Positions 3,484 through 40,365 of a DNA stretch of 64,000 nucleotides are shown here, one piece after another (position 1 is the stretch's first letter; each line of letters begins with the position of its first letter). Both the position numbers and the translations under genes were made by a program. Where the stretch lies: positions 1 to 64,000 of IMG/VR virus record IMGVR_UViG_3300023278_002223; one strand, 5' to 3'. This DNA is from a virus. Under the pieces are notes generated by a model, which did no database searches, was not told where the DNA came from, and saw only the letters and a program-made list of their open reading frames with translations.

Positions 3484-3493
3484 TTCGTATAAT
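3484..3493 (+). promoter_or_regulatory. Putative phage late promoter TTCGTATAAT
   Basis: One of 8 intergenic + strand copies of (T/A)(T/A)CGTATA(A/T)(T/A) upstream of genes. Confidence 0.7.
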
Positions 3494-25902: not shown

Positions 25903-26733
25903 ATGGCAATAACAGTAAAGACATCAACTGTCAACATGGAAACAGTTGTGTACGCCAACTCTCAGAACATGCCAAGCGGAACGCAGAACACTCACCTTGA
26001 GCTCAGCTTCCAGCCAACCAGCTCTGGAGATTACGACCAACAGCTAGTGGTAAACAAGACAACCCAGGCCGCATTTGGTAGCAAGCTAACAGTCGCCCAG
26101 TCCATATCTGCCACCAACGGAACCATAGACTCAGTAAAGGTCGGGTCAGATGTGTTCACAGAGGCTAGCGGAGTGGTCTATGCCTCAGCATCCGGATCAG
26201 TTGTTGTAGTGTCAGGGAGTGTGCCAAGCGGCTCAGACATCCACACTGCATCAATCAACTTCAACGAGGGACCAAGGACAGTCTCTGGAGGGTTGACAGT
26301 GTCAGACGCGGGTCTTTTCTCTGCCACCCACACCTACTCTTACCCAGGGATCTACCACATCCTCACAAGGGTTCAGGACTCTGAGGGCGCTGTTGACATG
26401 GATTCATTCCGTCTCAACTTGGCCTCTGACCTAACCGGAAGTGACTTGGGGAACTTGACAGTAACAGCAACCCCAGAAGGGGGAGACACCAGCAGCACCT
26501 CCTCTTTGTCTATAAGCTGTACAACAACTGGAGCGTCTGGCTTATCCATTAGTTCAGTAGAGGATGACGATTTGTCCTGGAACTTCGGCAACCACGAAAC
26601 AAGCAACAAGACAGCCCCATCAACAAGATATTCTGAGCCTGGGACATTTATCCCATCGGCCAGCTTCTTGTACCCAAGCCCATCTGGCAGTCTATATCTT
26701 ACAGATATTATCGACCTAGGGGCGAACACTTAA
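25903..26733 (+). CDS. PKD/Ig-domain virion protein
   Basis: HTYSYPGIY and WNFGN..S...PS.RYSEPGTF PKD signatures. Confidence 0.65.
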   Translation: MAITVKTSTVNMETVVYANSQNMPSGTQNTHLELSFQPTSSGDYDQQLVVNKTTQAAFGSKLTVAQSISATNGTIDSVKVGSDVFTEASGVVYASASGSVVVVSGSVPSGSDIHTASINFNEGPRTVSGGLTVSDAGLFSATHTYSYPGIYHILTRVQDSEGAVDMDSFRLNLASDLTGSDLGNLTVTATPEGGDTSSTSSLSISCTTTGASGLSISSVEDDDLSWNFGNHETSNKTAPSTRYSEPGTFIPSASFLYPSPSGSLYLTDIIDLGANT

Positions 26734-26785: not shown

Positions 26786-29700
26786 ATGGTAAGCGGACAC
26801 ATCAATGTAAGTGGAATAAACACCACATATCAGCCAGAGCTAGTAAGCTCGCCGGACGGACTCTTTGGAGCCTCTGGCGCGTTTCTTTCTGCCGTTAATG
26901 CCACATTTGGTTTCGGATCATCTCCCCACACATTCAGCCTGTCTTACGCACCAAGATCCTTTGGGCACGAGACCCTCCCAACAATCGGCACAGCCGTAGA
27001 CTTCTCAATTGACAACTTCCTCGTCAAGGGAAGCGTAACCCACGCAGACTACTCCAAAGACTCAAAGGGGAACCTTCTAAACGTCGTGATTCAAGACGAC
27101 AGGGTTGATCTAGACTCATTCTTCCTAGACACAGTTGGTCTGTTCGGAAGAAACGACACACCTTCTGACGATACAGTGGATGTCTACAATTGGTACAGCA
27201 AGACAAGCGTCAGCATAGCAACGTCCGGGAGATCATCCCAAGTAAAAGAGCTTGAGAGCATCAAGAACAATGGTGCAACATACAGGCAGATCTATGATGC
27301 AACAGAGTACTATGAAAACACAATCGGGTCAGTCACTGGGCTTCTTTCCTCACTACCAGCTCCAGACGTAGTAGAGAGCCAGCTTCCAGGAAACGTAGAC
27401 GGATACAGGTGGAAGTTCGAGGCAGAGGGCTTCTTGTCCGCTATGGTCAGGATCCTGTCAGATGTCAGCTATGACTGCTATTGGGATATGGCTGATGCCA
27501 AACTTTCAGTTGTCAACAGGAAGTACAGTGTAACAGTCACAAGAGATGACATCCCTTACGCAGGAGACACCTCCGAAACATTGCACCTAAAGTATGGAAA
27601 CGACGAGTCTGACAAGCCAAACAAGGTTAGAGTCTTCGGTCCAAACATGGAGGGGATCGTTGGAAGTGGGCGACTAATCCCAACCTCCGGAGCCTTCGCC
27701 GCATCCTATGACATGGGAATTACAGTTGGAGCACCTTCGTTCGAGCCAGGGTGGAGAAACGTAAACATCAAGTACTTCGGTCCAGATGGAAACCTCGCCA
27801 CTGACATCCCAACAGATGCAGAGCTTAGCGCAGCACTCAAATCAATCGAGTACTGGGCTCATGAGAAAGACCTAGAGAACAGAATCAGCAGCTCGGGCTT
27901 CGTTCCTGCCTCTGGATCTAACGTTGGACAGAACAGCCCAACATCCTACCTATCAGAGATGACCAGCAGATACAACTCTTCAAAGAGTTGGGTCGTAGCG
28001 TGGTACAACAAGGTTAAGACCTTTGCAGACTCCCACTATGGTAAGACATACACCCTAAAAGAGACCGATCCCCTATATGGTTTCATTGATGACTTTGAGG
28101 TCGTTGGTGAAGCATGGAGCAACCTTGAGAATCAGGCCAGCGGCCTATTCGAGGATGGATACCAGATCGACGGCACTTACTCTATGCTAGCCCCTTTCTA
28201 CAACGCCGCAACAAACAAGCTAAAGGCGTACTGCGTAATGGACACCACTACAAAGTGGGGGATCACAGGAGAGGGAGTTCCAACTAAGTTCGAGAGCTGG
28301 AATGAGGACGAGCTAAACCAATTTGTACCAATCAAGGTTCAGATGTGGAAATCTTCCAAGACAAGGTTTGACTCTCCAGCGTTTGAGTGGGACAGCTCAG
28401 AGAAGGGAATTGCTATAACATTCCCCAACTTCTGTTTCGACCCAACAACAGCAAGAAACACAGCGCTACTAACAGCCTCTTCAGGAATCACAACAGCCAA
28501 TAGTGGATTCCTAACTGGAGACTGGGGCGACGATTTCGTCGACCCACTACTAAACCCAGTCCCATACGAAGAGATCAACCCTGCTTCAGGGCAGAGCGTT
28601 GCTCTTCCTGTTAGAGTGAGCAGAAGATATGGATACGCATACCCTTCAGTCTGGACAAGCGGGACAGGGAGCAAGCTGGAGGTTGTTGTAGAAGACAAGT
28701 TCTCCCCATGGAACTACGAGCCAAGAGGGACAGACACCTCTGTCGAAAGGCTAACAGCAGACGTCAACGCCTTCATGAGCTCTCAGAAGATTGACGCCAC
28801 AGCGTCTACTCACGCGGAAGTGACCAAGATCGGTCTACCTGGGGTTAGCTTTGACGACTTCTCAGACCAGACTCTTCAGTCAAGTGGCTATGGGTTGATT
28901 TCAAACGGGATAACCTCCATCAACGTTGGTAGGGGATCCAGCGACTACTGGAAAACAAAGTACTCAGTAAAAGCCCACTTCCCACAGCTAGTAAAAGCAA
29001 AGCCAACCTTTACAAGACTAGACGAAGACTTTTCTTTCGTAATCAAGAAGATTGAGACAAGGATTACAGACCTAGAGCTCGATCTCGACATCCCAGAAGT
29101 GTTCGCCCCTATTGACGACACAAGGATAACAAGAATTGGGGTTGGCACAGCGGAAGAGAAAAGATCTATCCCTGTGACTATCACTACCGTTTACGATAGA
29201 ACATCTGGAGACCCTTACTACCTCTCAACAGACTCCAGAGGAAAGAGCTGGCCAAGAAACCTGGACCTAAACGCAGGAAGCCAGGCATCCCAAAGAGCAA
29301 GAGGCGCAGACGGGCTATTTGACGTTAACATGTCAGCAGTGTACCACTACGAGAGGCTAGAGGATGGAACATTCCAGCACTGGTACACAGGTGGTGTAGA
29401 CTTGGTTAACGCCAAAGTCATGACAGTAACGTCAGCAATAAAGACCGCTGGAGGCAGCAGCGTTGTTGACCTTCAGACACTAGCCCCAGTCGGGGGTGTT
29501 GCGATTGACATAACAAACGTTCCTCTTATCGACCAAGCAAACACCGACAGTGTCACAAGTGGAGCAAAGGTATCAGTCTCCTCCCCAATGAGCGACACCA
29601 ACATTAGGAACTACGACTTTACGCCTTCAGCTGGCCTCTCTGAGCTCTATGTGGTAAATGCCGCAGCAGGAGGAGGAGGGTCAGGAACCACCAACTTCGT

Positions 29701-29974
29701 AGAAGTGACAACGGCTCCAACATCTGGAGCTGGTGTATCTGGGATCGTTAGAACTTTCGCCGTAGGAAACATCTCGGCAATAACATACGATGACTCTGCC
29801 TCAGGAACAAAGGTCTCATTCGTTGGTATCGATCCAAGGATTGTAGCATCTGGAGACTTCGGAATTATCTCAATCCAGAGCGACACTGAGATCCAGGGAA
29901 GCGGATCAGTGGCCATCGACCATGTCCTTTGTCACATCGTCAAGCCTACCTTCATAAACTATGGATTGATTTAA
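26786..29974 (+). CDS. Tail hub/baseplate-like protein
   Basis: 1062 aa; N-terminal hub-like organisation (FGSSPHTFSL, VVIQDDR, YDCYWD, YGNDESD.PNKVRVFG). Confidence 0.55.
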   Translation: MVSGHINVSGINTTYQPELVSSPDGLFGASGAFLSAVNATFGFGSSPHTFSLSYAPRSFGHETLPTIGTAVDFSIDNFLVKGSVTHADYSKDSKGNLLNVVIQDDRVDLDSFFLDTVGLFGRNDTPSDDTVDVYNWYSKTSVSIATSGRSSQVKELESIKNNGATYRQIYDATEYYENTIGSVTGLLSSLPAPDVVESQLPGNVDGYRWKFEAEGFLSAMVRILSDVSYDCYWDMADAKLSVVNRKYSVTVTRDDIPYAGDTSETLHLKYGNDESDKPNKVRVFGPNMEGIVGSGRLIPTSGAFAASYDMGITVGAPSFEPGWRNVNIKYFGPDGNLATDIPTDAELSAALKSIEYWAHEKDLENRISSSGFVPASGSNVGQNSPTSYLSEMTSRYNSSKSWVVAWYNKVKTFADSHYGKTYTLKETDPLYGFIDDFEVVGEAWSNLENQASGLFEDGYQIDGTYSMLAPFYNAATNKLKAYCVMDTTTKWGITGEGVPTKFESWNEDELNQFVPIKVQMWKSSKTRFDSPAFEWDSSEKGIAITFPNFCFDPTTARNTALLTASSGITTANSGFLTGDWGDDFVDPLLNPVPYEEINPASGQSVALPVRVSRRYGYAYPSVWTSGTGSKLEVVVEDKFSPWNYEPRGTDTSVERLTADVNAFMSSQKIDATASTHAEVTKIGLPGVSFDDFSDQTLQSSGYGLISNGITSINVGRGSSDYWKTKYSVKAHFPQLVKAKPTFTRLDEDFSFVIKKIETRITDLELDLDIPEVFAPIDDTRITRIGVGTAEEKRSIPVTITTVYDRTSGDPYYLSTDSRGKSWPRNLDLNAGSQASQRARGADGLFDVNMSAVYHYERLEDGTFQHWYTGGVDLVNAKVMTVTSAIKTAGGSSVVDLQTLAPVGGVAIDITNVPLIDQANTDSVTSGAKVSVSSPMSDTNIRNYDFTPSAGLSELYVVNAAAGGGGSGTTNFVEVTTAPTSGAGVSGIVRTFAVGNISAITYDDSASGTKVSFVGIDPRIVASGDFGIISIQSDTEIQGSGSVAIDHVLCHIVKPTFINYGLI

Positions 29975-29975
29975 A

Positions 29976-32618
29976 ATGGCTAGCAGCGGCTACGTCTATC
30001 CTTCCAGTATGTGGTCTGGCGGCATGACGCTCCCAGTCAGTGGTGACATAGGTTACGTCCAACCTTTCGATACCGCGTCCGGAAACCTGGCCAACGGGAC
30101 CGGGATATATCCACTTGCAGTGCCAAGGATTGACGCTGCAGCCACCACGGGTATCACTGGAAACTCCCACATCCTACCATATAGCGCTCAACTATTCTAC
30201 ACTGCTCTTGAGTCAATCAAGCTTGAGTACACCGCAAGAGGTGCTACCGAGCCAGACTTTCACGTCTTCTACGATTATGCCAAGACAGACACAGAGATCC
30301 TAGCAAGCCACAGCGGCCTGCTAGAGATGCCTCTGCAGAACTTCCCACACCTAGTTGAAGAAGCCCAAGAGGCAATCAGCGGACTCGTATGCATGTCCGG
30401 CTGGAGCGACAGCATGGGCGACTACATGAACAGGGTGTTCGACTATAGGATTCTCCTTGCAGACGTTCCTTCTGGAAACAGACTCCAAGACGGAGTTACA
30501 TACAGGAACATAGCAACAGGGCAAGATGAAACTATCAACTGTCTGACAAGAGCAAGATCTGGTCTCTTCCCATTGGACTTCAATGCCATTAAAAACCTCA
30601 GCTCAACCTGGGGAGTGATGGCGAGCGGGACAAGGCTATACACCGCTGGGGGAGAGTTCTCTGGAGTAGGTCAGCCTATTGGAGACAGGACAACAAGAGA
30701 GCCTGAATTCCAGCAGTTCTCGTTCATGGGTCACTTTGACTGGTTGGCCCAAAGCCTACTCTGGAGACCACCAGTAGTAGAGAGCTTCAAGAATTCCACA
30801 GACACAAACACCCATAGTCTAATTACTCACGAGAGAGACAGATGGGAGTCCGCCTCTGGGTTCTACTACGATGACCCAGACGACGTGTGGTGGCATGCAA
30901 GCGGAACCTCCCCATCGGGAGTACCAAGCAAGTCTTCCAATTACGACACCGCCGCCCTTGTCTCTGCCCCAGCCCCTTCCTCACTAATCTATGGTGACTT
31001 GGGGTACTGGAGAGTTAATAAGCAGAGGTCAACCAAGTGTACGCCAATCGGCACATATGTTACAGGAGAGTCAAGCGGAACAACCTGGGAACTTGACACC
31101 CCAGACCTTCCCAGTCTGTATGAGCAGGTTGCTCTCAATAATACCGGATCTGGCCTCGATGTAAACACAAAGGACTACTACAAGAGTGACAACTTTAGTG
31201 GATACGTTTACAATTCTGGAACCGGAAGCGGTGGGTATAACGGAGACTACGTAGACATTAACACCAAGATATACTCCGAAAGACCTCAAGACTTCTCAAC
31301 ATACAATCAGGTCGGATATGTAGACCCAGACCCTTCCGCTAGCGGAGCGTACCTTGGTCAGCCTGGACAAGCGACCACTGCCGGTGCATTTGAAGCTGGC
31401 CCAGAGATCTTTGAGACATCGGTGTCTTGGATCTCCCCTGGTGCTAGTGGCAGATGGGAAATCAGCAATTCTGTAGTAGAAGCTGGTTCTGGAATCTCCT
31501 ACCCCCTAGGCAGTGGCTCTGCAATTGTTGTAGACATGAATATCGATAGTCACAATGCTGCCAGTGGAGAATGGACATCCCATACAGGTAGAAACGACTT
31601 TGAGGGTGTACACGTTTGCTTGCAGACAAACAAGCACATTCCTCACATAATTGAAAAAGACTCCAACTCAAGGACAGCAGACCTAATCTGGACTATGGAA
31701 AAGCAGATGGTGGTCTTTGATGACTTCATTCTGTTCGATTATGTTGAAGGAGCTCAAAACGAACAGTACCAACTGTTGACGTATGACACCAACAGCATAT
31801 CCAATAGCTACAACTCAGACCTGAATGCCGCATTCGGTTCCGATGGAGTTCTGGCCTCAGGGTATAGCTTCATAAGAAAAGCCCCAACACTCATGGGGCT
31901 ATATTTCTCAAGTACGGGGCTTCAAGAGTCCCAAACCCTAGTGTCCGATGGAACGTTTTATAACGGAGGAGAAGAAGTTCTTGAGACTGTATTCAGTGGA
32001 TCTTGGAGTATGTTCGGAGACCTGCCAACAAATAGGTCAAACAGATATGGATCTCTGGGAGGAATCAACTGGAGACAGGGAGGCGGAACGCTAATCTCTG
32101 ACTCAGACCTAACAGCTGACACTGAGTGGGACTGGGGGCTTGAGGAGAGCATAGGAGCCACCTCATACCCATCAGGAGCCGTTGCCAGCATATACAGCCT
32201 AAGCGACACAACACCAACATCCGGAACAGCCTCTGGAACCCTGTACACCGTAGACCTGTGGGACAAGTACATAGCAGACATGGACAGGCTTGCAACCCAC
32301 TGGCCATCAGGAGCAGTCGGCTCTTATGATGTTGATCCAGACCTCCTTCCATCAGGAAACGATTGGGAGAGATTTGAAGATAGTACAGATTCAGGCGTGT
32401 CCGGGTGGCACAACGCCGTAGCCCGCACATCTGGAGTAGCAACAGCCCAATTTGGGCAGCTAGAGGATGACGGCGGAACCACCATTGACGCCTTGAGCTT
32501 CAATCAGCTCATATCCAACGGAGCAAGCACATTCGCTCCATCTGGAGGAGTTGGCTACAACATCAATAGCATCTGGTTGAAATACCCAGTAATATTAGGC
32601 CCAAGTGGTCTAAACTAA
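29976..32618 (+). CDS. Large Ser-Gly-rich virion protein
   Basis: 880 aa, last gene of structural operon; about 36 SG dipeptides by hand count. Confidence 0.55.
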   Translation: MASSGYVYPSSMWSGGMTLPVSGDIGYVQPFDTASGNLANGTGIYPLAVPRIDAAATTGITGNSHILPYSAQLFYTALESIKLEYTARGATEPDFHVFYDYAKTDTEILASHSGLLEMPLQNFPHLVEEAQEAISGLVCMSGWSDSMGDYMNRVFDYRILLADVPSGNRLQDGVTYRNIATGQDETINCLTRARSGLFPLDFNAIKNLSSTWGVMASGTRLYTAGGEFSGVGQPIGDRTTREPEFQQFSFMGHFDWLAQSLLWRPPVVESFKNSTDTNTHSLITHERDRWESASGFYYDDPDDVWWHASGTSPSGVPSKSSNYDTAALVSAPAPSSLIYGDLGYWRVNKQRSTKCTPIGTYVTGESSGTTWELDTPDLPSLYEQVALNNTGSGLDVNTKDYYKSDNFSGYVYNSGTGSGGYNGDYVDINTKIYSERPQDFSTYNQVGYVDPDPSASGAYLGQPGQATTAGAFEAGPEIFETSVSWISPGASGRWEISNSVVEAGSGISYPLGSGSAIVVDMNIDSHNAASGEWTSHTGRNDFEGVHVCLQTNKHIPHIIEKDSNSRTADLIWTMEKQMVVFDDFILFDYVEGAQNEQYQLLTYDTNSISNSYNSDLNAAFGSDGVLASGYSFIRKAPTLMGLYFSSTGLQESQTLVSDGTFYNGGEEVLETVFSGSWSMFGDLPTNRSNRYGSLGGINWRQGGGTLISDSDLTADTEWDWGLEESIGATSYPSGAVASIYSLSDTTPTSGTASGTLYTVDLWDKYIADMDRLATHWPSGAVGSYDVDPDLLPSGNDWERFEDSTDSGVSGWHNAVARTSGVATAQFGQLEDDGGTTIDALSFNQLISNGASTFAPSGGVGYNINSIWLKYPVILGPSGLN

Positions 32619-32619
32619 A

Positions 32620-32629
32620 TTCGTATAAT
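32620..32629 (+). promoter_or_regulatory. Putative late promoter TTCGTATAAT
   Basis: Exact motif copy upstream of a ~280 nt unit with no long ORF. Confidence 0.7.
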
Positions 32630-32698
32630 AGGATACACTAAAGAGGGCTTCGTCCGAGCCCCCTGTTTCTGTCAGTACCCCCTGAAAGGTGGTTAAAC

Positions 32699-32794
32699 AT
32701 GAGGAATTCTAGCCGACTGGTTAGATTGCTTCTGTTGTCAGCGTCTCTTGGCGCTCTCCTCCTTGCCGCTCGCATGCTTGGACTACTAGCTTAA
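32699..32794 (+). CDS. 31-aa hydrophobic peptide MRNSSRLVRLLLLSASLGALLLAARMLGLLA
   Basis: AAAGGTGG SD-like sequence upstream, TAATAA double stop; below ORF track cutoff. Confidence 0.45.
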   Translation: MRNSSRLVRLLLLSASLGALLLAARMLGLLA

Positions 32795-32883
32795 TAAGTT
32801 GCCCCACTTATATTGCTATATGTGTTGAGACCAATGTCTCCAGACAAGCAGGCTTGAAGCCGTAAGTGAGGACCAGAAACTCT

Positions 32884-32917
32884 TAGACACACGCTAATAC
32901 CGTGTGTCTATTTTTTT
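32884..32917 (+). terminator. Rho-independent terminator
   Basis: TAGACACACG-loop-CGTGTGTCTA followed by T7. Confidence 0.85.
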
Positions 32918-32943
32918 GTCTAATCTAAGTCGTCGGGGTATAA

Positions 32944-32953
32944 TTCGTATAAT
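32944..32953 (+). promoter_or_regulatory. Putative late promoter TTCGTATAAT
   Basis: Exact motif copy upstream of 32975 gene. Confidence 0.7.
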
Positions 32954-32974
32954 ATCCTGAAGGAGATATAAACT

Positions 32975-33367
32975 ATGAATAGCAGAATAGTCATTCCAGA
33001 GAACCTAGTAGTTGGCGGCATGTCCCTAACTCTCTCTATCGAGATTGTGGCCAGAAACCTCGAAACCCAAGAAGAGCAGACGTTTGACACCCCTGGACAG
33101 GGGAATCAGGCGTTAGCCCTAATTGAGGCAGAGTGGAGATCAGGATCCCAGGGAGGTAGGGCCAGAGATATTGCCAACTTCAAGGAGGATGAGAATCACG
33201 CCCAAAACAACGAGTTCGTATCTAGAACCCTCCTATTGGACCCAGTCCTTGGACACGAGTACTACGGACAAATAACAACATCAGTAACAGCCAGAGAAGT
33301 AAACATCCCAGTCGCCCCACCAGGAGACGCTGAGCCAGGAATTGGCTTAGGCATAGAAATAGAATAA
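32975..33367 (+). CDS. Hypothetical protein
   Basis: AAGGAG SD, own promoter motif, 130 aa. Confidence 0.7.
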   Translation: MNSRIVIPENLVVGGMSLTLSIEIVARNLETQEEQTFDTPGQGNQALALIEAEWRSGSQGGRARDIANFKEDENHAQNNEFVSRTLLLDPVLGHEYYGQITTSVTAREVNIPVAPPGDAEPGIGLGIEIE

Positions 33368-33440
33368 GTCGCAGGGGTCCAACTGGTCGTCGGGGCCTAA
33401 CTCACCTCTGCCCCCCAAACCCACTTGCATGTCCGGTGAG

Positions 33441-33740
33441 GTCACTAGGGCAAGCCCTAGAACCGAGCGCACCATACGCAACTCACAAGGGCTACCCCCT
33501 TGAACCCGTGGCCTAAGCCCTCTGCAAGAGCACCATACGGGTACCCCCTTGGACCCATGGCGTTAGCCCTAGACAATATCTGCCCTTAGGTTCCCTAAGG
33601 AGCAGGAAACCCCACCAACCACCATACGGCTCCACAAAGAACAAGGGAATCTGTCCAAACTCCAAGGGCCCTCTGCAAGAGCCCTTGAACCCTTACAGGT
33701 TCGTTGGACATTCACAATGGGCAAGCCCCTTGAACCCTCT
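33441..33740. repeat. Non-coding array of degenerate hairpin repeats
   Basis: CCCTTG(A/G)ACCC at 33497, 33546, 33682, 33727; CACCATACG at 33470, 33531, 33620; GCCCTCTGCAAGAG twice. Confidence 0.75.
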
Positions 33741-33976
33741 CAGACCCAGATTTTAGTAGTCCCCAACAACTATACCTGACGACCATGCCAGGATCCCCGA
33801 GAAGGGGTCCAGCAGGCTCTCTAATGCGTTCGGATATGGGGGTGACTATGATGGTAAGCAGATAAAATAAAATGGGCTGAGAATGGATGCCAGGGGGCTA
33901 CAGTCCAATTTACCAAAATAAGGTCATCGGAAGGAGGTATTCCGAGAACCCGAAGTAGGTATTTTGGGTGCAGAAT

Positions 33977-33986
33977 ATCGTATATA
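33977..33986 (+). promoter_or_regulatory. Degenerate late promoter ATCGTATATA
   Basis: Variant motif upstream of 34056 gene. Confidence 0.45.
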
Positions 33987-34055
33987 GAGGTAGCAGGGGG
34001 CTAGTCTAACGTTAGGCTGGTACGGTCGTTACACTCTAAATCTCAGAAACCAATC

Positions 34056-34472
34056 ATGAAGATTTATGACGCGGACACAGTTGCTGAAATGATGCCTCTT
34101 CTTCACTCATACAGTAGGAGCATTGAGAAGCTCTATCTGGAAGTTGAAGAGATTACCAATAACATTAATGAGCTTGAATCCCTTGAGGACGCTCAAAGTC
34201 ATGCTGGTGAGATAGAAGTCCAAGAACACCACTTTAGGCTTAAAAGCAGGAGACTTATCGATACAGCTGACGAACTTAAGAAGGATTTTGGCATAGGCGT
34301 TTGCAATCCCGTATTCGGGACACTAGACGTAGGAATTATGTCGAAATCAGGCTCCATGCACCTCATGCTTTGTGTAGATTATACATGCACAGCGGACCCA
34401 GACACCTGGCTCTGCCATGAGACATACATGGGATCGAAACAACCTAGACTCTCCAAATGGAGCGATGTCTAG
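34056..34472 (+). CDS. DUF2203-like protein
   Basis: Y..DTVAEMMPLL N-terminus, coiled coil, GTLDV...LMLC..W..H C-terminus resemble DUF2203. Confidence 0.5.
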   Translation: MKIYDADTVAEMMPLLHSYSRSIEKLYLEVEEITNNINELESLEDAQSHAGEIEVQEHHFRLKSRRLIDTADELKKDFGIGVCNPVFGTLDVGIMSKSGSMHLMLCVDYTCTADPDTWLCHETYMGSKQPRLSKWSDV

Positions 34473-34520
34473 AAAGTAAGAGTACACATAAAGAGATTAT
34501 AGTGGATTCTATAGAAATTG

Positions 34521-34559
34521 AGATCTAGCCTCTTGGTCGGGGCTAGGTCTTGTTTTTTT
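34521..34559 (+). terminator. Terminator at end of + strand arm
   Basis: AGATCTAGCC...GGCTAGGTCT followed by TGTTTTTTT. Confidence 0.8.
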
Positions 34560-34634
34560 GTAAACATAGTGCGGGTCAATACTTACAAAAATATAAAAAA
34601 AATCGCGGCGCACTCTTCGACCTATTTTCTTGCC

Positions 34635-35342
34635 CTACCCCTGTTCTCCGCAGCCCTCGCAACCGCCACATCCGTCCTCGGTCCCACAGCTGGAGCCACA
34701 GGCTCTAGGAGAAGTGTCTAGCTCTCGGATCTCCCTAGTGGCTAGATCGATGAGGTAAACAGAGTCCTGATTGTGACTTAGGGCAGGGATCTGCTCAACA
34801 GGAACGCCCTCAACTAGGCCTCGGATAGTCTTAGAGACCATCTCGTGAGTCACTACGACAGAGATATCATTGCTAGATATCAAGTTGAGAAAGTGGTCAT
34901 TGACTCTTTCGGCAATGTCCCTGTAGCTCTCGCCTCCTGGGAAGGCGTTGCTCCACTTGTTCCCCTGACGATAGGCTGTCTCCACTGGGAAGAACTGGTC
35001 CCACTCGCCTCGCTCTAGGCCCGCCACACAGCCCATATCTCCCTCTTTTAGAGCATCGTGGGTGTGAATGTTCTGAAAGTCAGACTCGATTACGTCAGAG
35101 ACGATAGTGGAGGTCTGCATTGCTCTACCCAGAGGAGAGGAGTAGAACATAAAGTCCTCACCCCCCTCCAGGGAGTCTAGAAGGAAAGAGACCATGACAC
35201 CCATTAGGAATGCCTGCTGGCAGCCCTTGGCTGTTAGGGGTGAATCAAGTCGACCTTGGGCCTTGGAAATTCTGTTCCAGGCGGTTTGACCGTGTCTGCA
35301 CAGGATGATCTTGCCCATCCCTGGCTTGCTCTTAAACTTCAT
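34635..35342 (-). CDS. Histidine phosphatase (phosphoglycerate mutase family) with Cys-rich tail
   Basis: RHGQT, SSPLGRAMQT, FPGGES, VVTH motifs. Confidence 0.85.
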   Translation of the reverse strand: MKFKSKPGMGKIILCRHGQTAWNRISKAQGRLDSPLTAKGCQQAFLMGVMVSFLLDSLEGGEDFMFYSSPLGRAMQTSTIVSDVIESDFQNIHTHDALKEGDMGCVAGLERGEWDQFFPVETAYRQGNKWSNAFPGGESYRDIAERVNDHFLNLISSNDISVVVTHEMVSKTIRGLVEGVPVEQIPALSHNQDSVYLIDLATREIRELDTSPRACGSSCGTEDGCGGCEGCGEQG

Positions 35343-35372
35343 GTTACGCTCCTAGTCTTCCTGGGGTCATGA

Positions 35373-37448
35373 TTACTTATTCTTGGCTTCTTGATCGGCT
35401 TTGTATTCGGCGATCAATTCTTCTTTGATGTCGCCTGGGGCTGCCTTGTAGTTTGCAAGCTCCATGGTGTAGGAGCTCATTCCACGGGTTGCGCTTCGGA
35501 GATCAGTTGAGAATCCAAACATCTCAGCCAGTGGGGTCTCTGCAATAATAACAGCGTCTGTTCCTTGCTGGGTGGTGTCTACTAGAATCCCGCGTCGGGC
35601 CAACATTAGGCCCACCATGTCTCCCTGGAACTCTGAAGGACCAGAGATCTCAACCTTCATGATTGGCTCTAGAATCTGTGGCTTTCCTTTGGAGTAGAAC
35701 TCTCGGAAGCATGCACGAGCGGCTGCCATAAAGGCCATGTCACTTGAGTCTACGGCGTGAGCCTTACCGTCCTGAAGCTCAACTGCTAGCCCATCGATTG
35801 GTGCGCCAACTAGTAGACCTTTAACTACGGCCTGAGCGAAACCCTTCTCAACAGATGGGATGTATTCGCGAGGAACGTTACCACCAGTGACAGTGCTTGT
35901 GAACTCCAGATCTTCTCCTTCAGCGGGGCCCATCTTTCCGATAATCCTACCGAACTGACCTGAGCCACCAGTCTGCTTCTTATGGGTGTAATCGAATTTA
36001 ACTTCGCGGGTCAAAGCCTCGCGGTATGCAACTGTTGGCTTACCAACCTCAACCTCAGCACCAAACTCACGCTTCATGCGCTCGATGTAGACCTCCAAGT
36101 GGAGCTCTCCCATTCCTGAGATTAGGGTGTCACCAGTCTTATCGTCCTGGGCGACCTTGAAGGTTGGGTCTTCTCGTGTGAAGCGACCAAGAGCCTTTGA
36201 AAGGTTGGCCTGCTTCTTACGGTCCACACACTTGATGGATAGCTGAATTACTGGCTCAGGAACGTGCATGGATGTGCAGAGTAGATCGACTCCAGGGGCA
36301 CGGAAGGTGTCACCAGAAGCACAATCGATTCCGAACAGTGCTACAATGTCACCGGCCTCTGCTCTCTCGATGTCTTCCATCTGGTCAGAGTGCATTCTCA
36401 CAAGGCGGCCAATCTTAACTACCTTGCCTGTGCGGGCGTTCTCAATCTGCTCACCCTTGACGAGTGCTCCCTGGTAAACTCGGATGTAGGTAAGCTGTCC
36501 ATACTGTCCGTCCTCAAGCTTGAAGGCGTATGCTAGGGTGTCAGCACTCTCGTCCATTTGGACCTCTTCCCCAGTCTTAGCATCAAGAGCCACGTTGGTA
36601 ACATCGCCCGGTGCAGGGAGGTATCGAGTGACTGCGTCTAGGAGGGGCTGGACCCCTTTGTTTTTGTATGCTGAACCACAGAAGACTGGGCAGAGCTCAA
36701 GAGAGATGATTCCAGCACGGGCTGCACGGTGGATTTGCTCTTCAGTAGCAGCGTCCTCTAGGACGGCCTCCATTAGCTCATCATCGAACATAGAGAGAGT
36801 GTCTAGGAGCTCCTCACGAGCAACCATAGCATCGGCCTCCATGGAAGAGGGGATCTCTTCGATTCGGATGTCCTGACCATTATCACCGTCGAAGTAGTAA
36901 GCCTTCATTGTGACGAGATCTACGAGCCCCTCAAGGTCAAGGCCCAGTCCGATAGGAAGCTGAAACATTGCCGAGTTTAGCCCCAGTTTGTCTTTTAGGT
37001 CAGAGCAGACCTGGATTGGGTCAGCACCAGTGGTGTCGCACTTGTTAACAAAGGCGAGGCGAGGTACGTTGTATCGACGCATCTGACGGTCAACGGTAAT
37101 TGACTGAGACTGAACACCAGCAACACCGCAGAGGACAAGAACAGCGCCATCTAGAACACGAAGAGAGCGCTCAACCTCAACAGTGAAGTCAACGTGCCCT
37201 GGAGTGTCAATGATATTAATAGGGTTCTTACCCCACTCAACGTGGGTGGCCGCTGAGGCGATAGTAATACCACGCTCTCGCTCTAGCTCCATTGAGTCCA
37301 TTGTGGCACCAACGCCATCCTTGCCTCGGACTTCGTGGATGGAGTGAATTCTGTCACAGTAGAATAGAATGCGCTCAGTTAGAGTCGTCTTACCGCTATC
37401 TACGTGGGCCGAAATTCCAATGTTTCTCATATCTGGATTGCTGGGCAT
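35373..37448 (-). CDS. fusA: Translation elongation factor G (spdEFG1/mtEFG1-like)
   Basis: [58 protein letters not shown]; full length 691 aa. Confidence 0.97.
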
Positions 37449-37567
37449 TATGCTATTTTCCTTGTACTGTCTCTGCGAGCATACGACTCACAAAGCTTGC
37501 AGACTAGTGATTGGCTGCGAAAGTCAACCTTTTTGACTTGCTTGCGGCACTTCTTACATGTTTCCAT
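37448..37567 (-). CDS. 39-aa CxxC...CxxC microprotein [39 protein letters not shown]
   Basis: Fills the gap between promoter and fusA; TAATG stop-start overlap with fusA. Confidence 0.6.
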
Positions 37568-37573
37568 ACCATT

Positions 37574-37602
37574 ATATTAGCACACAATGTGTAGCGTTTC
37601 AA
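37574..37602 (-). promoter_or_regulatory. Sigma70-type promoter TTGAAA-17-TAATAT with extended -10 TG
   Basis: Same architecture as the 41209-41237 site. Confidence 0.7.
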
Positions 37603-37612
37603 CTTTTATTTT

Positions 37613-37642
37613 AAAAAAGGCCACGCCAATTAAGGCGTGACC
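37613..37642 (-). terminator. Rho-independent terminator ending the neu operon
   Basis: GGTCACGCC-loop-GGCGTGGCC followed by T6 on the - strand. Confidence 0.85.
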
Positions 37643-37673
37643 AATGAAAGGAGAAGTGTCGTTCTCTTTAAGT

Positions 37674-38480
37674 CTATCGTAGTTCTGGGTTTGCATCGAT
37701 CCAGTCTTTAATCATACTAACGCCGACGCCCTTTAGTCCCATCTTCTTAGCAACCTCTGGGGTCACTGACTTGCTTAGCCATACGATTTCCCAACCAACA
37801 GGGTTGAGGAACTGGTCGGCAAGAATTACCTTCTTACCTCTGGCCTCTGATCTATAGAGACAGAGGTTGGCGGACTCATGCCACCATGCAAAGCTAGCGA
37901 CCTCTGTGCAGGAGAATGCTGGGTCATAGCCTCTAAGGTGTTCAACTCCATCTAGGAGAGTGGTTCTTTGGTATCCGAGATAGGAGTCTGGGCCAGTAAA
38001 GAACTCGACCTCCTTCTCAATGTCGAAGTCGAAGTCTACATCGTAGTTCTCTCCGATGATCCTCATGGCCTTATCGACTGCCACCTTCACTCCCTCTGGG
38101 CGGTGCTTGATGGTCTTGGGTCTGACAATAATAGCGTAGTCAGTCTTTAGGGGGACGATGGCGTTTACATGGCGGACGCCTTCTCCAACTGCCTCTACAA
38201 TCTTAGGCGCAGTACCGTCATCCCTAAGAGGCTCGACGTGAACCCAGGCATGCTTCATGAATCCAGGAATAGCCACATTGGACAAATACCCCTCATCTCG
38301 ATGCAGCCCGACATCTCCTGGCTTAATCAGGTACTTCAAAGCATACAAAACTTCGTCCAAATCGACTTTATAGTCATGAGGTGGAGCCCAGGTAACCCAC
38401 GGAAACCCGTTTAGGCTCCTGATGTCTCCAACGAAATCGACGAGTTTTTTCCAAAAGTATTTTTTCAAATCCCTAAACAT
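37674..38480 (-). CDS. Permuted papain-like NlpC/P60 (YiiX/YebB-like) enzyme
   Basis: KPGD, GFMKHAW, IVEAVGEGV, YDVDF, FSCTE motifs; likely start MFRDLK. Confidence 0.75.
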   Translation of the reverse strand: MFRDLKKYFWKKLVDFVGDIRSLNGFPWVTWAPPHDYKVDLDEVLYALKYLIKPGDVGLHRDEGYLSNVAIPGFMKHAWVHVEPLRDDGTAPKIVEAVGEGVRHVNAIVPLKTDYAIIVRPKTIKHRPEGVKVAVDKAMRIIGENYDVDFDFDIEKEVEFFTGPDSYLGYQRTTLLDGVEHLRGYDPAFSCTEVASFAWWHESANLCLYRSEARGKKVILADQFLNPVGWEIVWLSKSVTPEVAKKMGLKGVGVSMIKDWIDANPELR

Positions 38481-38491
38481 GTTATCCCCCT

Positions 38492-38896
38492 TCAACGGAG
38501 TGACCATCCCTGGCCCTCTGTCCACTTTAGTGGCTGAATGTGTGAAAGTGTATCGAACCAATTTGTAAATCTAACCGCTTTGTCATCAATGTAGTAGCAG
38601 GCTCTTGGCTTTTCTGCTGTGATTTCATCTATGTACTGAAGTAGTCCGTGACTGTCAAGCCAAGCACTAACAAGCTCAGTCCCAGTAGTCCCATCAACTA
38701 GGGGACGATCAGAGCGAGCCTTGCATGTGTATAGGACAAGCCTGTACTCCCCAGAGAGAGCCTTGATGGCCTCTGCTGAGCCAGGGATGAGGTCGCCCTC
38801 AACGTAACCACCGTTCCAGTCTGTTTGGGCGTGTAGGACTCCATCGAAGTCTATGGCGATGGTCTTTGCTGCCTCTGCGTCGTAATCTCTAGCCAC
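38492..38896 (-). CDS. HAD-superfamily phosphatase
   Basis: IAIDFDGVL, YT, KP..YYIDD motifs. Confidence 0.85.
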   Translation of the reverse strand: MARDYDAEAAKTIAIDFDGVLHAQTDWNGGYVEGDLIPGSAEAIKALSGEYRLVLYTCKARSDRPLVDGTTGTELVSAWLDSHGLLQYIDEITAEKPRACYYIDDKAVRFTNWFDTLSHIQPLKWTEGQGWSLR

Positions 38897-39716
38897 CGTA
38901 ATCTCTCTTTTCTAGGAAGTCCTTCTCCCCCTCTGAAATGTCAGACGCTGTCTTTGATTCTAGAACAACACCTTTAACCGAGGACACCATGGCTGCAAAC
39001 TCTTCAGGCAGCAAGGCACATTCGAGGTGGTGAATCTTTAGATCTCTGGACAGAGAGAAGTGTCTCTCGATCATACCAGCCCCATTGAGAGCTGCAACGA
39101 GGGTGGCGTCGTAGCCAACTTCGTGTCCAGAATAGCCGATAGTAACCTTGGGGCTTGAGACCTCTTCGATCATCTTCCTAATGTATCCAGTGTTAGATAG
39201 CCCATCAGGGGTGGGATAGATAGAGACACAGTGAAGAATGTACGCCTCTATGTCCTTCTCCTCAATCCTCCTTAGGGCTTCTATGTAGAAGTCGTGAGTC
39301 TTTCCCCCCATGCTGTACACAAACGGGATGCCAAGCTCTTTACACTTGTCTGAGACCAAATCAAACAGCTCAGACTTGGCTGCATCCATAGAAGCTATCT
39401 TTAGGGCAGAAGGCCCGAAGGGGACAACGAAGTCTAGGGACTCCTTGTCATGGACGGTGGTGCTCCACTCTATGCCAACATCCCTACAGTGGTCAACAAT
39501 CTTCTGCATATCGGCCCTGTCGATCTCTAGAGACTTTCTGTAGTCTGAGAACGGCATATGTCTCCACCTCTTAGAGGGGTCAGTGTAGTATGAGTCCACG
39601 TTCTTAAACTTGAACTTAACCTGCGTTGCACCTGACTTCTTCGCTTCGCTAATCATAGCGCAAAGAATGTTGGTGCTCCCTAAGTGGTTAATTGTACATT
39701 CGCATACGAATTTCAA
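38889..39716 (-). CDS. neuB: NeuB-family nonulosonic acid (-9-phosphate) synthase, no SAF domain
   Basis: ECTINHLG, VKF, KIAS, LHCVSIYP, GYSGHE, IERHF motifs; probable TTG start with GGAGG SD. Confidence 0.9.
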   Translation of the reverse strand: MKFVCECTINHLGSTNILCAMISEAKKSGATQVKFKFKNVDSYYTDPSKRWRHMPFSDYRKSLEIDRADMQKIVDHCRDVGIEWSTTVHDKESLDFVVPFGPSALKIASMDAAKSELFDLVSDKCKELGIPFVYSMGGKTHDFYIEALRRIEEKDIEAYILHCVSIYPTPDGLSNTGYIRKMIEEVSSPKVTIGYSGHEVGYDATLVAALNGAGMIERHFSLSRDLKIHHLECALLPEEFAAMVSSVKGVVLESKTASDISEGEKDFLEKRDYGG

Positions 39717-39717
39717 T

Positions 39718-40365
39718 CTACCACCTCCCATTATCAGACAGAATGTCATCTAGAGGCTTATCCATCATGATCTGACTTCTGATGCTTCTTTCTTTCTCAA
39801 TGATAGTGTAGAACTTGCCCCAGTAAAACCCCAAGAGCTCCTTAGGAACAACAATGGCCCCATCTCTATCCATGGCAATGTAGTCACCGGAGTTAATGGT
39901 AACACCTTCGATTTTAATCTCACAGTCGTACTTCGTCAAAGCCCAATGCCCGATTGCGTCAATGGGGTTGTTGTCTTTTGAGAAAACTGGGAAGCCAATG
40001 TCATCAATTATGTCGGCATCTCTGGTTATGCCATCTGTTAGCATCCCCTGTGCTCCCATCTTCTTGTAGATAAGAGAGGTGATATCTCCAGTATGGGCAA
40101 CCTTGTTGTCATTAGCCTGCAAACACACGATGGGGTTCATGTGGCGGAAATAGTCCTGGTGGTCCCTATAAATGCCCATCCTGATGCGGTCAAGCTCTTC
40201 ATAGTTGGCAATGGTGACTTTCTGTCCATAGGTGGTGAAGGCTGGCCCATGCACGAACTTGCTATAGCCAGCTGTGGGCTTGATGTTGATGTAGAAGTCA
40301 TCAGCTTTTTGGCCAACGATCTTCCTAAGGGCATCGTATGCTGCGCCTAGGTACAGGTGTTTCAT
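39718..40365 (-). CDS. RraA/HMG aldolase family protein
   Basis: GPAFT, AHTGDI, DGITRD, PVFS, GD.I.MD.DG.IVVP motifs. Confidence 0.85.
   Translation of the reverse strand: MKHLYLGAAYDALRKIVGQKADDFYINIKPTAGYSKFVHGPAFTTYGQKVTIANYEELDRIRMGIYRDHQDYFRHMNPIVCLQANDNKVAHTGDITSLIYKKMGAQGMLTDGITRDADIIDDIGFPVFSKDNNPIDAIGHWALTKYDCEIKIEGVTINSGDYIAMDRDGAIVVPKELLGFYWGKFYTIIEKERSIRSQIMMDKPLDDILSDNGRW

Follow-up and report, generated by a model that had tools for sequence, protein, structure and literature searches.

Hairpins repeated in clusters outside genes are known from several systems. The REP/BIME palindromes of E. coli act as 3'-end stabilizers and are dispersed in hundreds of copies of alternating orientation; the RNase III sites of phage T7 (R0.3, R1.1) are intergenic RNA hairpins with an internal loop, placed one per junction between many genes of polycistronic transcripts, whose ends they define and protect; the sponge RNAs CsrB and RsmZ line up many similar hairpins with a conserved loop (GGA); the lambda nut site joins a linear boxA to a hairpin, boxB; iteron origins (lambda ori, plasmid oriV) gather same-orientation short repeats, typically of 17-22 bp in classical iterons, at one non-coding locus and are unstable in copy number; and GOLLD, ROOL and HEARO, families in Rfam, are long, GC-rich, hairpin-rich non-coding stretches of phages. 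Here we describe an array of hairpins and short repeats at positions 33441-33740 of a 64,000-nucleotide (nt) stretch of viral DNA, hereafter the window, which comprises positions 1-64,000 of the 89,248-bp IMG/VR virus record IMGVR_UViG_3300023278_002223 (CheckV completeness estimate 49%). The array lies in a gap that is kept in two further, distant lineages and is a real conserved non-coding element, for which we tentatively favor a structured RNA.

The array shares features with each of these systems and departs from each. With REP/BIME elements it has in common clustered, short, GC-rich, imperfect palindromes that lie untranslated within one transcription unit and lack a U-tract; it differs in that its motifs occupy one locus in one orientation. 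Like the T7 sites it would provide phage intergenic hairpins of conserved structure in a polycistronic transcript, defining and protecting its ends, but as four to six short perfect hairpins within 300 nt, and the motif is absent from all other gaps of the contig. CsrB and RsmZ are resembled in the succession of many like hairpins and in unit numbers that seem to differ among relatives, whereas in the array stems and flanks are conserved and loops vary. The layout of nut is approached where the linear word CCATACGG stands 1-7 nt before a short hairpin, in two of its three window copies and in L045, one of the related loci described below; the third copy, however, lies 34 nt from a hairpin, there is no N-like gene, and a single downstream gene follows before the arm ends. 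As in iteron origins, at least three direct repeats are unique to one non-coding locus (CACCATACG three times, CCCTWGRACC five times), in the same orientation and with signs of copy-number instability, but they are shorter than classical iterons, being 9-10 nt long, and irregular, and no adjacent AT-rich unwinding element, initiator gene, skew extremum or genome-scale switch in strand composition accompanies them. The likeness to GOLLD, ROOL and HEARO is confined to general character, as Rfam 15 returned no match at gathering score in the whole window or in L045 and L052. At E ≤ 10 six sub-threshold rows of chance level were listed, the best within 33200-34200 (E 0.57) lying outside the array, and Rfam families were rejected for the array for want of a gathering-score match.

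Conservation of the gap in three lineages

The array lies in a gene-free gap of 688 bp (33368-34055, GC content 0.53) between open reading frames (ORFs) of 130 and 138 amino acids (aa), both on the plus strand. All six frames of the gap are closed by 7-14 stops per frame, and tblastx between the gaps of three lineages yielded no conserved reading frame (best E 0.25-1.4); on these grounds a hidden coding sequence was rejected, in agreement with an earlier note on this DNA, made by a model from its letters and ORFs, which had called the array non-coding.

The comparison was made among three independent lineages, namely the window phage, the L045 type and L052. Loci of the latter two were reached through an alignment of the 880-aa protein encoded upstream, which has homologues at 45% and 35% identity and led to L045, L046, L050 and L051 on the one hand and to L052 on the other; a further L045-type locus, L047, was found through the 138-aa family. 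In both lineages, genes for proteins of 1062-1075, 848-880, 219-222 and 130-146 aa are followed by a gap of 554-595 bp (595 bp in L045, 554 bp in L052), by a homologue of the 138-aa protein and by the opposite gene arm. The window phage has the same order without the 219-222-aa gene. Its 138-aa protein is 29-30% identical to the neighbors of the L045 and L052 gaps (E 6e-20 and 7e-23), and the small gene upstream of the gap has no detectable relation among the window, L045 and L052.

Three hairpin types were distinguished within the gaps: H0, with the loop CTAC(C) followed by TGRACCC; H1, with the loop (A)CAAG; and H2, with a 3-nt loop. Stem pairs were read directly from the sequence; MAFFT put the hairpin copies in different registers. 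The gaps of L045 and L052 share CTAAGACYGA-ATARGGACAAGCCYTAT (local alignment score 32, reached by 0 of 300 shuffles; opposite strand 19), and both contain the H1 core NTARGG-(A)CAAG-CCYTAN, in which one G-C pair of L045 is A-T in L052. Two of the relatives' records, of 75.8 kb and 42.9 kb, were searched for the H1 word, and each contains it a single time. In full, the hairpins read AATAGGG-ACAAG-CCCTATT in L045 and GATAAGG-ACAAG-CCTTATC in L052, and their counterpart in the window is hairpin U1 (33445-33460, plus strand), CTAGGG-CAAG-CCCTAG, whose loop is shorter by one base and whose outer pair is C-G. Over five perfect copies of the H1 stem (CTAGGG/CCCTAG, CAAGGG/CCCTTG twice, ATAGGG/CCCTAT and ATAAGG/CCTTAT), two-sided changes are found at three of the six stem positions, with no broken pair; the further copy U5 has one mismatch. 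H2 stands directly after H1 in the relatives (CCTCTC-TTC-GAGAGG in L045, GCTCC-TCT-GGAGC in L052) and has a window counterpart at 33584. Its stem sequences are unrelated among the three lineages, and its loop is 3 nt long in all of them.

The window and L045 additionally share GCACCATACGG-G-TACCCCCTTGGACCC / GCTCCATACGGAGCTACCTCC-TGGACCC (score 27, reached by 2 of 300 shuffles; opposite strand 19). This block runs CCATACGG...TGGACCC, and its middle, again read directly, can form a short hairpin with the loop (C)TAC(C). In the window it occupies 33530-33557 on the plus strand and comprises the second copy of CACCATACG (33531-33539), GGG-TACC-CCC and TTGGACCC, for which L045 has GCTCCATACGGAGCTACCTCCTGGACCC.

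Two distant lineages keep the gap and a hairpin with two-sided stem changes, so that a lack of conservation or covariation in relatives, which the earlier note had named as counting against its proposal, does not apply. Function is favored over debris because the gap is kept at one place over large divergence and the hairpins are kept through paired changes. In the contrary explanation, a short ancestral spacer would have been duplicated and scrambled by slippage or recombination, leaving hairpins without a function of their own. This would agree with repeats that are degenerate and irregular (84-92% between copies) and were not called as a tandem array, with flanks common within the window phage only, and with a unit number that seems variable between close relatives. 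It is nevertheless quite improbable in our view, as a gap of 550-690 bp persists in three lineages at 29-45% identity of the neighboring proteins despite the compactness of phage genomes, H1 survives with paired changes, and a close relative from brine is about as conserved in the gap as in its genes.

This relative is represented by a brine-metagenome contig of 1083 nt. Over 33433-34345 the contig differs from the window by 75 substitutions and 72 gap letters, and its 138-aa protein shares 88% identity with that of the window; its gap is about as conserved as the neighboring coding DNA (85-93% identical), but with length changes. Contigs of four brine DNA runs (X1, X2, X3 and X5) represent relatives about 85-93% identical over most of 28001-40000, in which the region of the 130-aa ORF (32801-33200) is nearly uncovered and the array and the 138-aa gene are covered. 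One low-depth brine contig skips 33465-33579. The five L045-type gaps (L045, L046, L047, L050 and L051) are almost identical, with a few single-base differences outside one patch. The variable patch itself (L045 13937-13999, alignment columns 178-230) is built of 13-nt GGGG-ended units, GCCAGCGTGGGGG, GCCAGCTAGGGGA and GACCATCGTGGGGA, whose order and number differ. The first base of the L047 contig falls exactly within the T-run of the terminator ahead of the gap, at a distance of 519 nt from the downstream gene for the 138-aa homologue (DUF2203-like, see below); either a break in the assembly or a physical end could account for this. From these comparisons it appears that modules present once each in the relatives have been multiplied in the lineage of the window phage.

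Further searches for relatives were made at several levels. IMG/VR protein scans with the 138-aa, 130-aa, 880-aa and EF-G proteins and a JGI metagenome scan with the 138-aa protein returned none, nor did a search of 50,697 phage records by blastn and tblastn, for which the region, the 880-aa protein and two members of the 138-aa family (P0001 and P0025) served as queries; a DnaE search of phage records gave only matches below 31% identity. A DNA pattern of two units was found in 43 IMG/VR stretches, none of them related to the window phage, and only L019 shares a tail-fibre-like segment. Neither the 880-aa alignment nor the H1 pattern of L045 and L052 had a match in a scan of genome contigs. 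In the literature, as far as result listings and the beginnings of abstracts go, no description of the element was found.

Hairpins and repeats of the array

The hairpins named in the earlier note, the three copies of CACCATACG and the pair TGTCCAA/TTGGACA are all present in the sequence, and the hairpins and short repeats at 33441-33740 exceed the number expected by chance. A search for perfect stems of at least 6 bp within 33425-33760 yielded six hits, which represent four distinct hairpins; 2000 shuffles gave 0.88 on average, and a fraction of 0.004 of them reached six. CCCTWGRACC has five matches in the window, all on the plus strand between 33455 and 33736, where 0.71 would be expected and 0 of 100 shuffles reach five. 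Counted on both strands of the 89,248-bp contig, all copies of CACCATACG (3/3), GCCCTCTGCAAGAGC (2/2), CCCTTG[AG]ACC (4/4) and CCCT[AT]GAACC (4/4) fall within the array, as do two of the three copies of TCAC[AT]AGGG, the third lying at 26363.

Along the plus strand, U1 is followed by the first copy of CACCATACG (33470-33478) and by hairpin U2, CAAGGG-CTACC-CCCTTG with AACCC behind it (33486-33502). GCCCTCTGCAAGAGC, the first copy of an exact 15-nt repeat that contains the mini-hairpin CTCT-GCA-AGAG, occupies 33517-33531. Within the block common to L045 stands the half-unit GGG-TACC-CCC+TTGGACC (33539-33555), followed by the H2 hairpin CCTTAGG-TTC-CCTAAGG of 7 bp (33584-33600), which forms in folds of both strands, and by the third copy of CACCATACG (33620-33628). 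The outer stem of TGTCCAA (33652) and TTGGACA (33704), spanning 33652-33710, encloses hairpin U4, CAAGGGC-CCTCTGCAAGA-GCCCTTG (33663-33687), whose loop carries the second copy of the 15-nt repeat (33668-33682), and the hairpin GAACC-CTTACA-GGTTC (33687-33702). The array closes with the imperfect hairpin U5, CAATGGG-CAAG-CCCCTTG, with one T.C mismatch and AACCC behind it (33715-33732). The half-unit, the H2 hairpin and the GAACC/GGTTC hairpin go beyond the list of the earlier note.

The longest repeat pair measures 32 nt at 84% identity, exact repeats do not exceed 15 nt, and start-to-start spacings range irregularly from 41 to 181 nt; between hairpin centers, the spacings are 41.5, 48.5, 49.5, 83 and 48.5 nt. 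On a like stem, loop length in the window phage varies between 4, 5 and 11 nt, as counted on maximal stems (a 6-bp count gives 13 nt for the last). The TCAC and GAACC flanks are repeated within the window phage only. In the G-rich half of the gap, to the right of the array, CAGGGGGCTA occurs twice (33891 and 33994) and GAAGGAGGTATT/GAAGTAGGTATT stand at 33930 and 33952.

Both strands were folded. The whole-region z-scores were modest, with -3.17 for the plus and -2.17 for the minus strand of the window and -2.30/-1.99 and -1.65/-1.32 for the other two lineages, the plus strand being slightly lower in each. In the global fold, some of the local hairpins give way to pairing of repeat copies with one another at long range, as at 33445/33565. 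The multi-way junction proposed for TGTCCAA/TTGGACA is seen as a three-way junction in the minus fold only; in the plus fold these words form a plain extended stem around one hairpin.

Several known types of array were considered and set aside. ARAGORN found no tRNA or tmRNA genes in the window, L045, L051 or L052, and tRNA-like units were rejected, no cloverleaf being present. The array is not of CRISPR type, as the earlier note had held: spacing is irregular, the repeats are short and degenerate, Tandem Repeats Finder called no array, and no Cas domain was found in the seven neighboring proteins scanned. Other functions considered in the same note found little support. A guide array is disfavored by variable parts of 4-13 nt, too short for guides, those of the TIGR type included, and by the lack of an adjacent effector gene, in particular one with a Nop domain; for an origin or packaging site, the cumulative skew of the contig has no extremum at the locus, and no AT-rich stretch lies within the array. 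Antisense pairing with translation-start regions was also considered. RNA of the plus strand has a complement of at least 8 nt in 9 of 95 such regions (shuffle mean 5.72, maximum 14) and RNA of the minus strand in 13 of 95 (mean 6.61, maximum 13; 200 mononucleotide shuffles), among them leftward-gene starts at 87041, 85141, 84748, 84304 and 79808. No common box was apparent and the shuffles preserved mononucleotide composition only; the excess was treated as a probable composition effect.

Proposed transcription of the array and its possible roles

The rightward gene arm of the window, which extends up to 34472, carries tail-fibre-like and virion proteins and very large ORFs, and the leftward arm, from 34635, carries genes for a histidine phosphatase, EF-G, glycosyltransferases, a DnaE-type polymerase, a DnaB-like helicase and a UvsX-like recombinase. 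The arms converge at 34473-34634, where a strong plus-strand terminator hairpin (34519-34552) marks the true convergence point. The earlier assignment of the array to the arm junction was approximate: the gap is near it, but the convergence lies about 0.75 kb to the right of the hairpins.

A promoter-like word, ATTCGTATAATA (32946-32957, plus strand), precedes the 130-aa ORF, with a sigma-70-type match at 32916-32944, and a second one, ATCGTATATAGA (33979-33990, plus strand), precedes the 138-aa gene and has equivalents before its homologue at L045 14269 and L052 10320. CGTATA[AT][TA] occurs nine times on the plus strand, eight of these before plus-arm genes, and once on the minus strand; the longer TCGTATA[AT][TA] occurs seven times on the plus and not on the minus strand (mean 1.49 per strand in 200 shuffles). 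The word (A/T)TTCGTATAAT stands before plus-arm genes at 3486, 4534, 11313, 15282, 26735, 32622, 32946 and 33979 of the window, at L045 6715, 12549, 13753 and 14269 and, as CGTATAGT, at L052 2757, 8613, 9811 and 10320, and in all three lineages the promoter-like word TCGTATAAT is restricted to the plus strand, before plus-arm genes. (A/T)TTCGTATAAT, common to the three lineages, has the appearance of a late promoter for the clade, and the copy at 32946 is the probable start of a rightward late transcript that runs into the array. Plus-strand terminators were predicted at 32884 and 34519 only, with none between 32910 and 34519, and a transcript from 32946 should therefore cross the 130-aa ORF into the array. 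The genes preceded by (A/T)TTCGTATAAT are structural-arm genes only, and no -35 element is evident.

The reverse complement of CACCATACG, CGTATGGTG, shares the pattern CGTAT plus TAnnnT with the promoter word CGTATAAT by reading of the letters, and its three minus-strand copies (33470-33478, 33531-33539 and 33620-33628) could be weak leftward promoters or decoys for a late factor.

Behind the upstream gene, L045 and L052 have the promoter-like word, then about 80-100 nt and an intrinsic terminator; the hairpins lie downstream of the terminator. In L052, a sigma-70-type promoter (10 of 12 matches) stands just after the terminator and ahead of the hairpins; L045 has no sigma-70-type match at the corresponding place. 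The word-to-terminator units of the two relatives (L045 13753-13848, L052 9811-9921) lie at the stop codon of the upstream gene, both begin with ATATC and share CATAAGAC, and could be short stand-alone RNAs; a comparable unit is found in the window at 32622-32910, upstream of the 130-aa ORF.

The plus strand of the array is rich in C and A, with a GC skew of -0.21 to -0.34 (33400-33800) and an AT skew of +0.07 to +0.47, and its excess of A over T has the same sign as in the plus-arm genes. Within the gap the GC skew flips, between 33750 and 33850 (near 33790), from about -0.3 (33400-33800) to +0.3/+0.44 (33800-34050). The C-rich bias is absent from the gaps of the relatives. GC content is 0.52-0.61 in the array, and the nearest lower-GC stretch (0.44) lies at 33850-34050; the 0.53 of the gap is the highest among the 19 gaps listed (0.32-0.53), the genome having about 48% GC. 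The high GC content, the layout of promoters and terminators and the A>T bias together favor a rightward late RNA. A hint at RNA from the minus strand, which the earlier note had drawn from g(CUUG)c tetraloops, was not borne out: such a loop is found in two window copies only, the loop of the relatives' H1 is a pentaloop (ACAAG on the plus, CUUGU on the minus strand), and promoter words, terminators and A>T bias favor the plus strand.

We tentatively favor, at somewhat less than even confidence, a structured RNA segment with repeated hairpins for protein binding or processing, made during rightward late transcription. The active form as RNA, the plus strand, the binding of a protein and an effect on transcripts are all points that we infer. 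In outline, a small set of hairpins, H0, H1 and H2, would belong to a conserved non-coding stretch that separates the final two genes of the late, rightward arm in the clade, and would have been multiplied locally in the window phage. Late in infection the segment would be transcribed rightward, from the word at 32946 through the 130-aa ORF, and the RNA would form local hairpins within a C- and A-rich, G-poor backbone. The hairpins may then serve as repeated recognition sites for a protein that binds or cuts RNA, and its action could govern the end, stability or use either of the late transcript or of the leader belonging to the DUF2203-like gene, which follows the gap in every lineage compared.

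A plainer role at the transcript end would dispense with a specific partner: the array would be a Rho-dependent terminator region after the 130-aa ORF, with hairpins that block 3' exonucleases. No intrinsic terminator is found from the 130-aa stop to the next promoter word, C exceeds G over 33400-33800 (skew -0.21 to -0.34), and the classical terminator that L045 and L052 have at that position leads one to expect a terminator function here too. The relatives, however, keep H1 and H2 beyond their intrinsic terminator, where a 3'-end role is not needed, and do not have the C-rich skew in common with the window; moreover, CCATACGG, TGGACCC and (A)CAAGCCC are conserved across lineages, and generic stabilizer hairpins need no such words. 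We consider this role distinctly improbable.

The alternative that the element acts as DNA is a serious rival, though we hold it somewhat less likely than the RNA. Palindromes and repeats would then be protein sites in the duplex, or in extruded or single-stranded hairpins, and might constitute a group of operators or enhancers acting on the late promoter ahead of the DUF2203-like gene, an iteron origin, or a packaging or partition site. Same-orientation short repeats confined to one locus (CACCATACG and CCCTWGRACC) would suit such sites, and H1 and H2 of the relatives are perfect inverted repeats of 5-7 bp with spacers of 3-5 bp, the size of dimer operators. Symmetric changes in half-sites would fit co-evolution with a fast-evolving binder, and the small gene upstream shows no relation among the three lineages. 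Copy number seems unstable, to judge from the L045-type GGGG patch, the 72 gap letters within 33433-34345 and the contig that skips 33465-33579. The local flip in GC skew from -0.3 to +0.4 near 33790 and the resemblance of CGTATGGTG to CGTATAAT point the same way. Against duplex sites of fixed spacing, folded hairpins are favored because a like stem carries loops of 4, 5 and 11 nt (13 by the 6-bp count), so that the spacer between like half-sites varies, and the center-to-center spacings are out of helical phase. At GC 0.52-0.61 the array has no internal AT-rich stretch for unwinding. Cumulative skew over the whole contig peaks elsewhere, for GC at 25,906 and for AT at 34,496, the latter being the gene strand switch; the replication genes (DnaE, DnaB-like and UvsX-like) lie 12-25 kb from the array on the other arm; and domain scans found no DNA-binding domain in either neighbor of the gap.

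Several observations weigh against the favored reading as a structured, protein-binding late RNA. The fold z-scores are weak, and the global minimum-energy fold lacks U1 and U2 as local hairpins. Alignment of the window with L052 is at noise level (score 19; shuffle mean 19.3), and the covariation rests on very few independent events, namely three lineages, with the five loci of one almost identical. No informative G-U pair was found on either strand, and symmetric changes in perfect palindromes are also expected from co-evolving dimeric DNA-binding proteins. The TCAC and GAACC flanks, repeated within the window phage only, could stem from recent duplication rather than from selection. As the intrinsic terminator of L045 and L052 stands ahead of their hairpins, a simple 3'-end function serving the upstream gene would not extend to these lineages. 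No candidate RNA-binding protein emerged, the model of the DUF2203-like protein having no informative structural match and that of the 130-aa protein being unusable. The evidence fits both RNA and DNA as the active form: no wobble pair is informative, the symmetric palindromes also suit co-evolving dimer sites, and there are hints of an unstable copy number, as is typical of repeat-based DNA sites.

Neighboring proteins and significance

Directly upstream of the gap lies the 130-aa orphan ORF (32975-33367, plus strand). The sole match of its protein is a 99% identical copy, P0048; it showed no similarity to the ORFs that occupy the corresponding place in L045 and L052, and its single-sequence AlphaFold2 model had a predicted local distance difference test (pLDDT) score of 45.7. 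In the leftward arm, beyond the convergence, the histidine phosphatase gene (34635-35342) is adjoined by a gene for full-length EF-G (35373-37448) with all five domains (GTP_EFTU, E 5.5e-60; EFG_II, III, IV and C).

To its right, the gap has as conserved neighbor the 138-aa DUF2203-like gene (34056-34472, plus strand), with which the plus arm ends. A profile search among 1.84 billion proteins gave 28 family representatives at E ≤ 0.001, and further lineages of the family (P0015, P0016, P0041, P0042, P0018 and P0045-47) were found on JGI, Logan or ENA contigs. The label DUF2203-like, already used in the earlier note, is supported through the family, 19 of whose 24 aligned members match DUF2203 (PF09969; best E 1.2e-08); the window protein itself has no such match at E ≤ 1. 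C83, C106 and H121 are nearly invariant in the 24 sequences. An AlphaFold model of the protein (pLDDT 96.9) consists of a long antiparallel helical hairpin and a small five-stranded beta domain that carries the conserved Cys and His residues, and this predicted architecture recalls Gre/DksA-type factors, with no structural match in support. A Gre-factor-like fold was not accepted: GreB appeared at Foldseek rank 46 (E 3.5), and VIA-align matched the helical hairpin only (Z ≤ 7.1), a resemblance and no more. A sequence search of solved structures with the 138-aa protein gave nothing below E 0.03, and, as far as result listings go, a literature search for DUF2203 gave nothing related.

Annotation of large uncultured phages mostly proceeds gene by gene and passes over their long non-coding gaps. 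In the present clade, uncultured large phages from marine and brine or hypersaline sources, such a gap is kept at the same place across lineages with 29-45% identity of the flanking proteins, with hairpins that change in pairs and match no catalogued RNA family. We regard it as unlikely, though conceivable, that the gap encodes a new family of late structured phage RNA in which H0, H1 and H2 dock a protein, possibly the DUF2203-like coiled-coil protein encoded next to it, and that the multiplied modules of the window phage form a multivalent scaffold or decoy array with room for several copies of that protein. If the element is a DNA site, it would mark a point of control, origin or packaging in a clade that has no cultured member. 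If it is an RNA, it would constitute a phage RNA family not described before and, through its link to DUF2203, a protein family of no known function, would provide a first handle on the latter.

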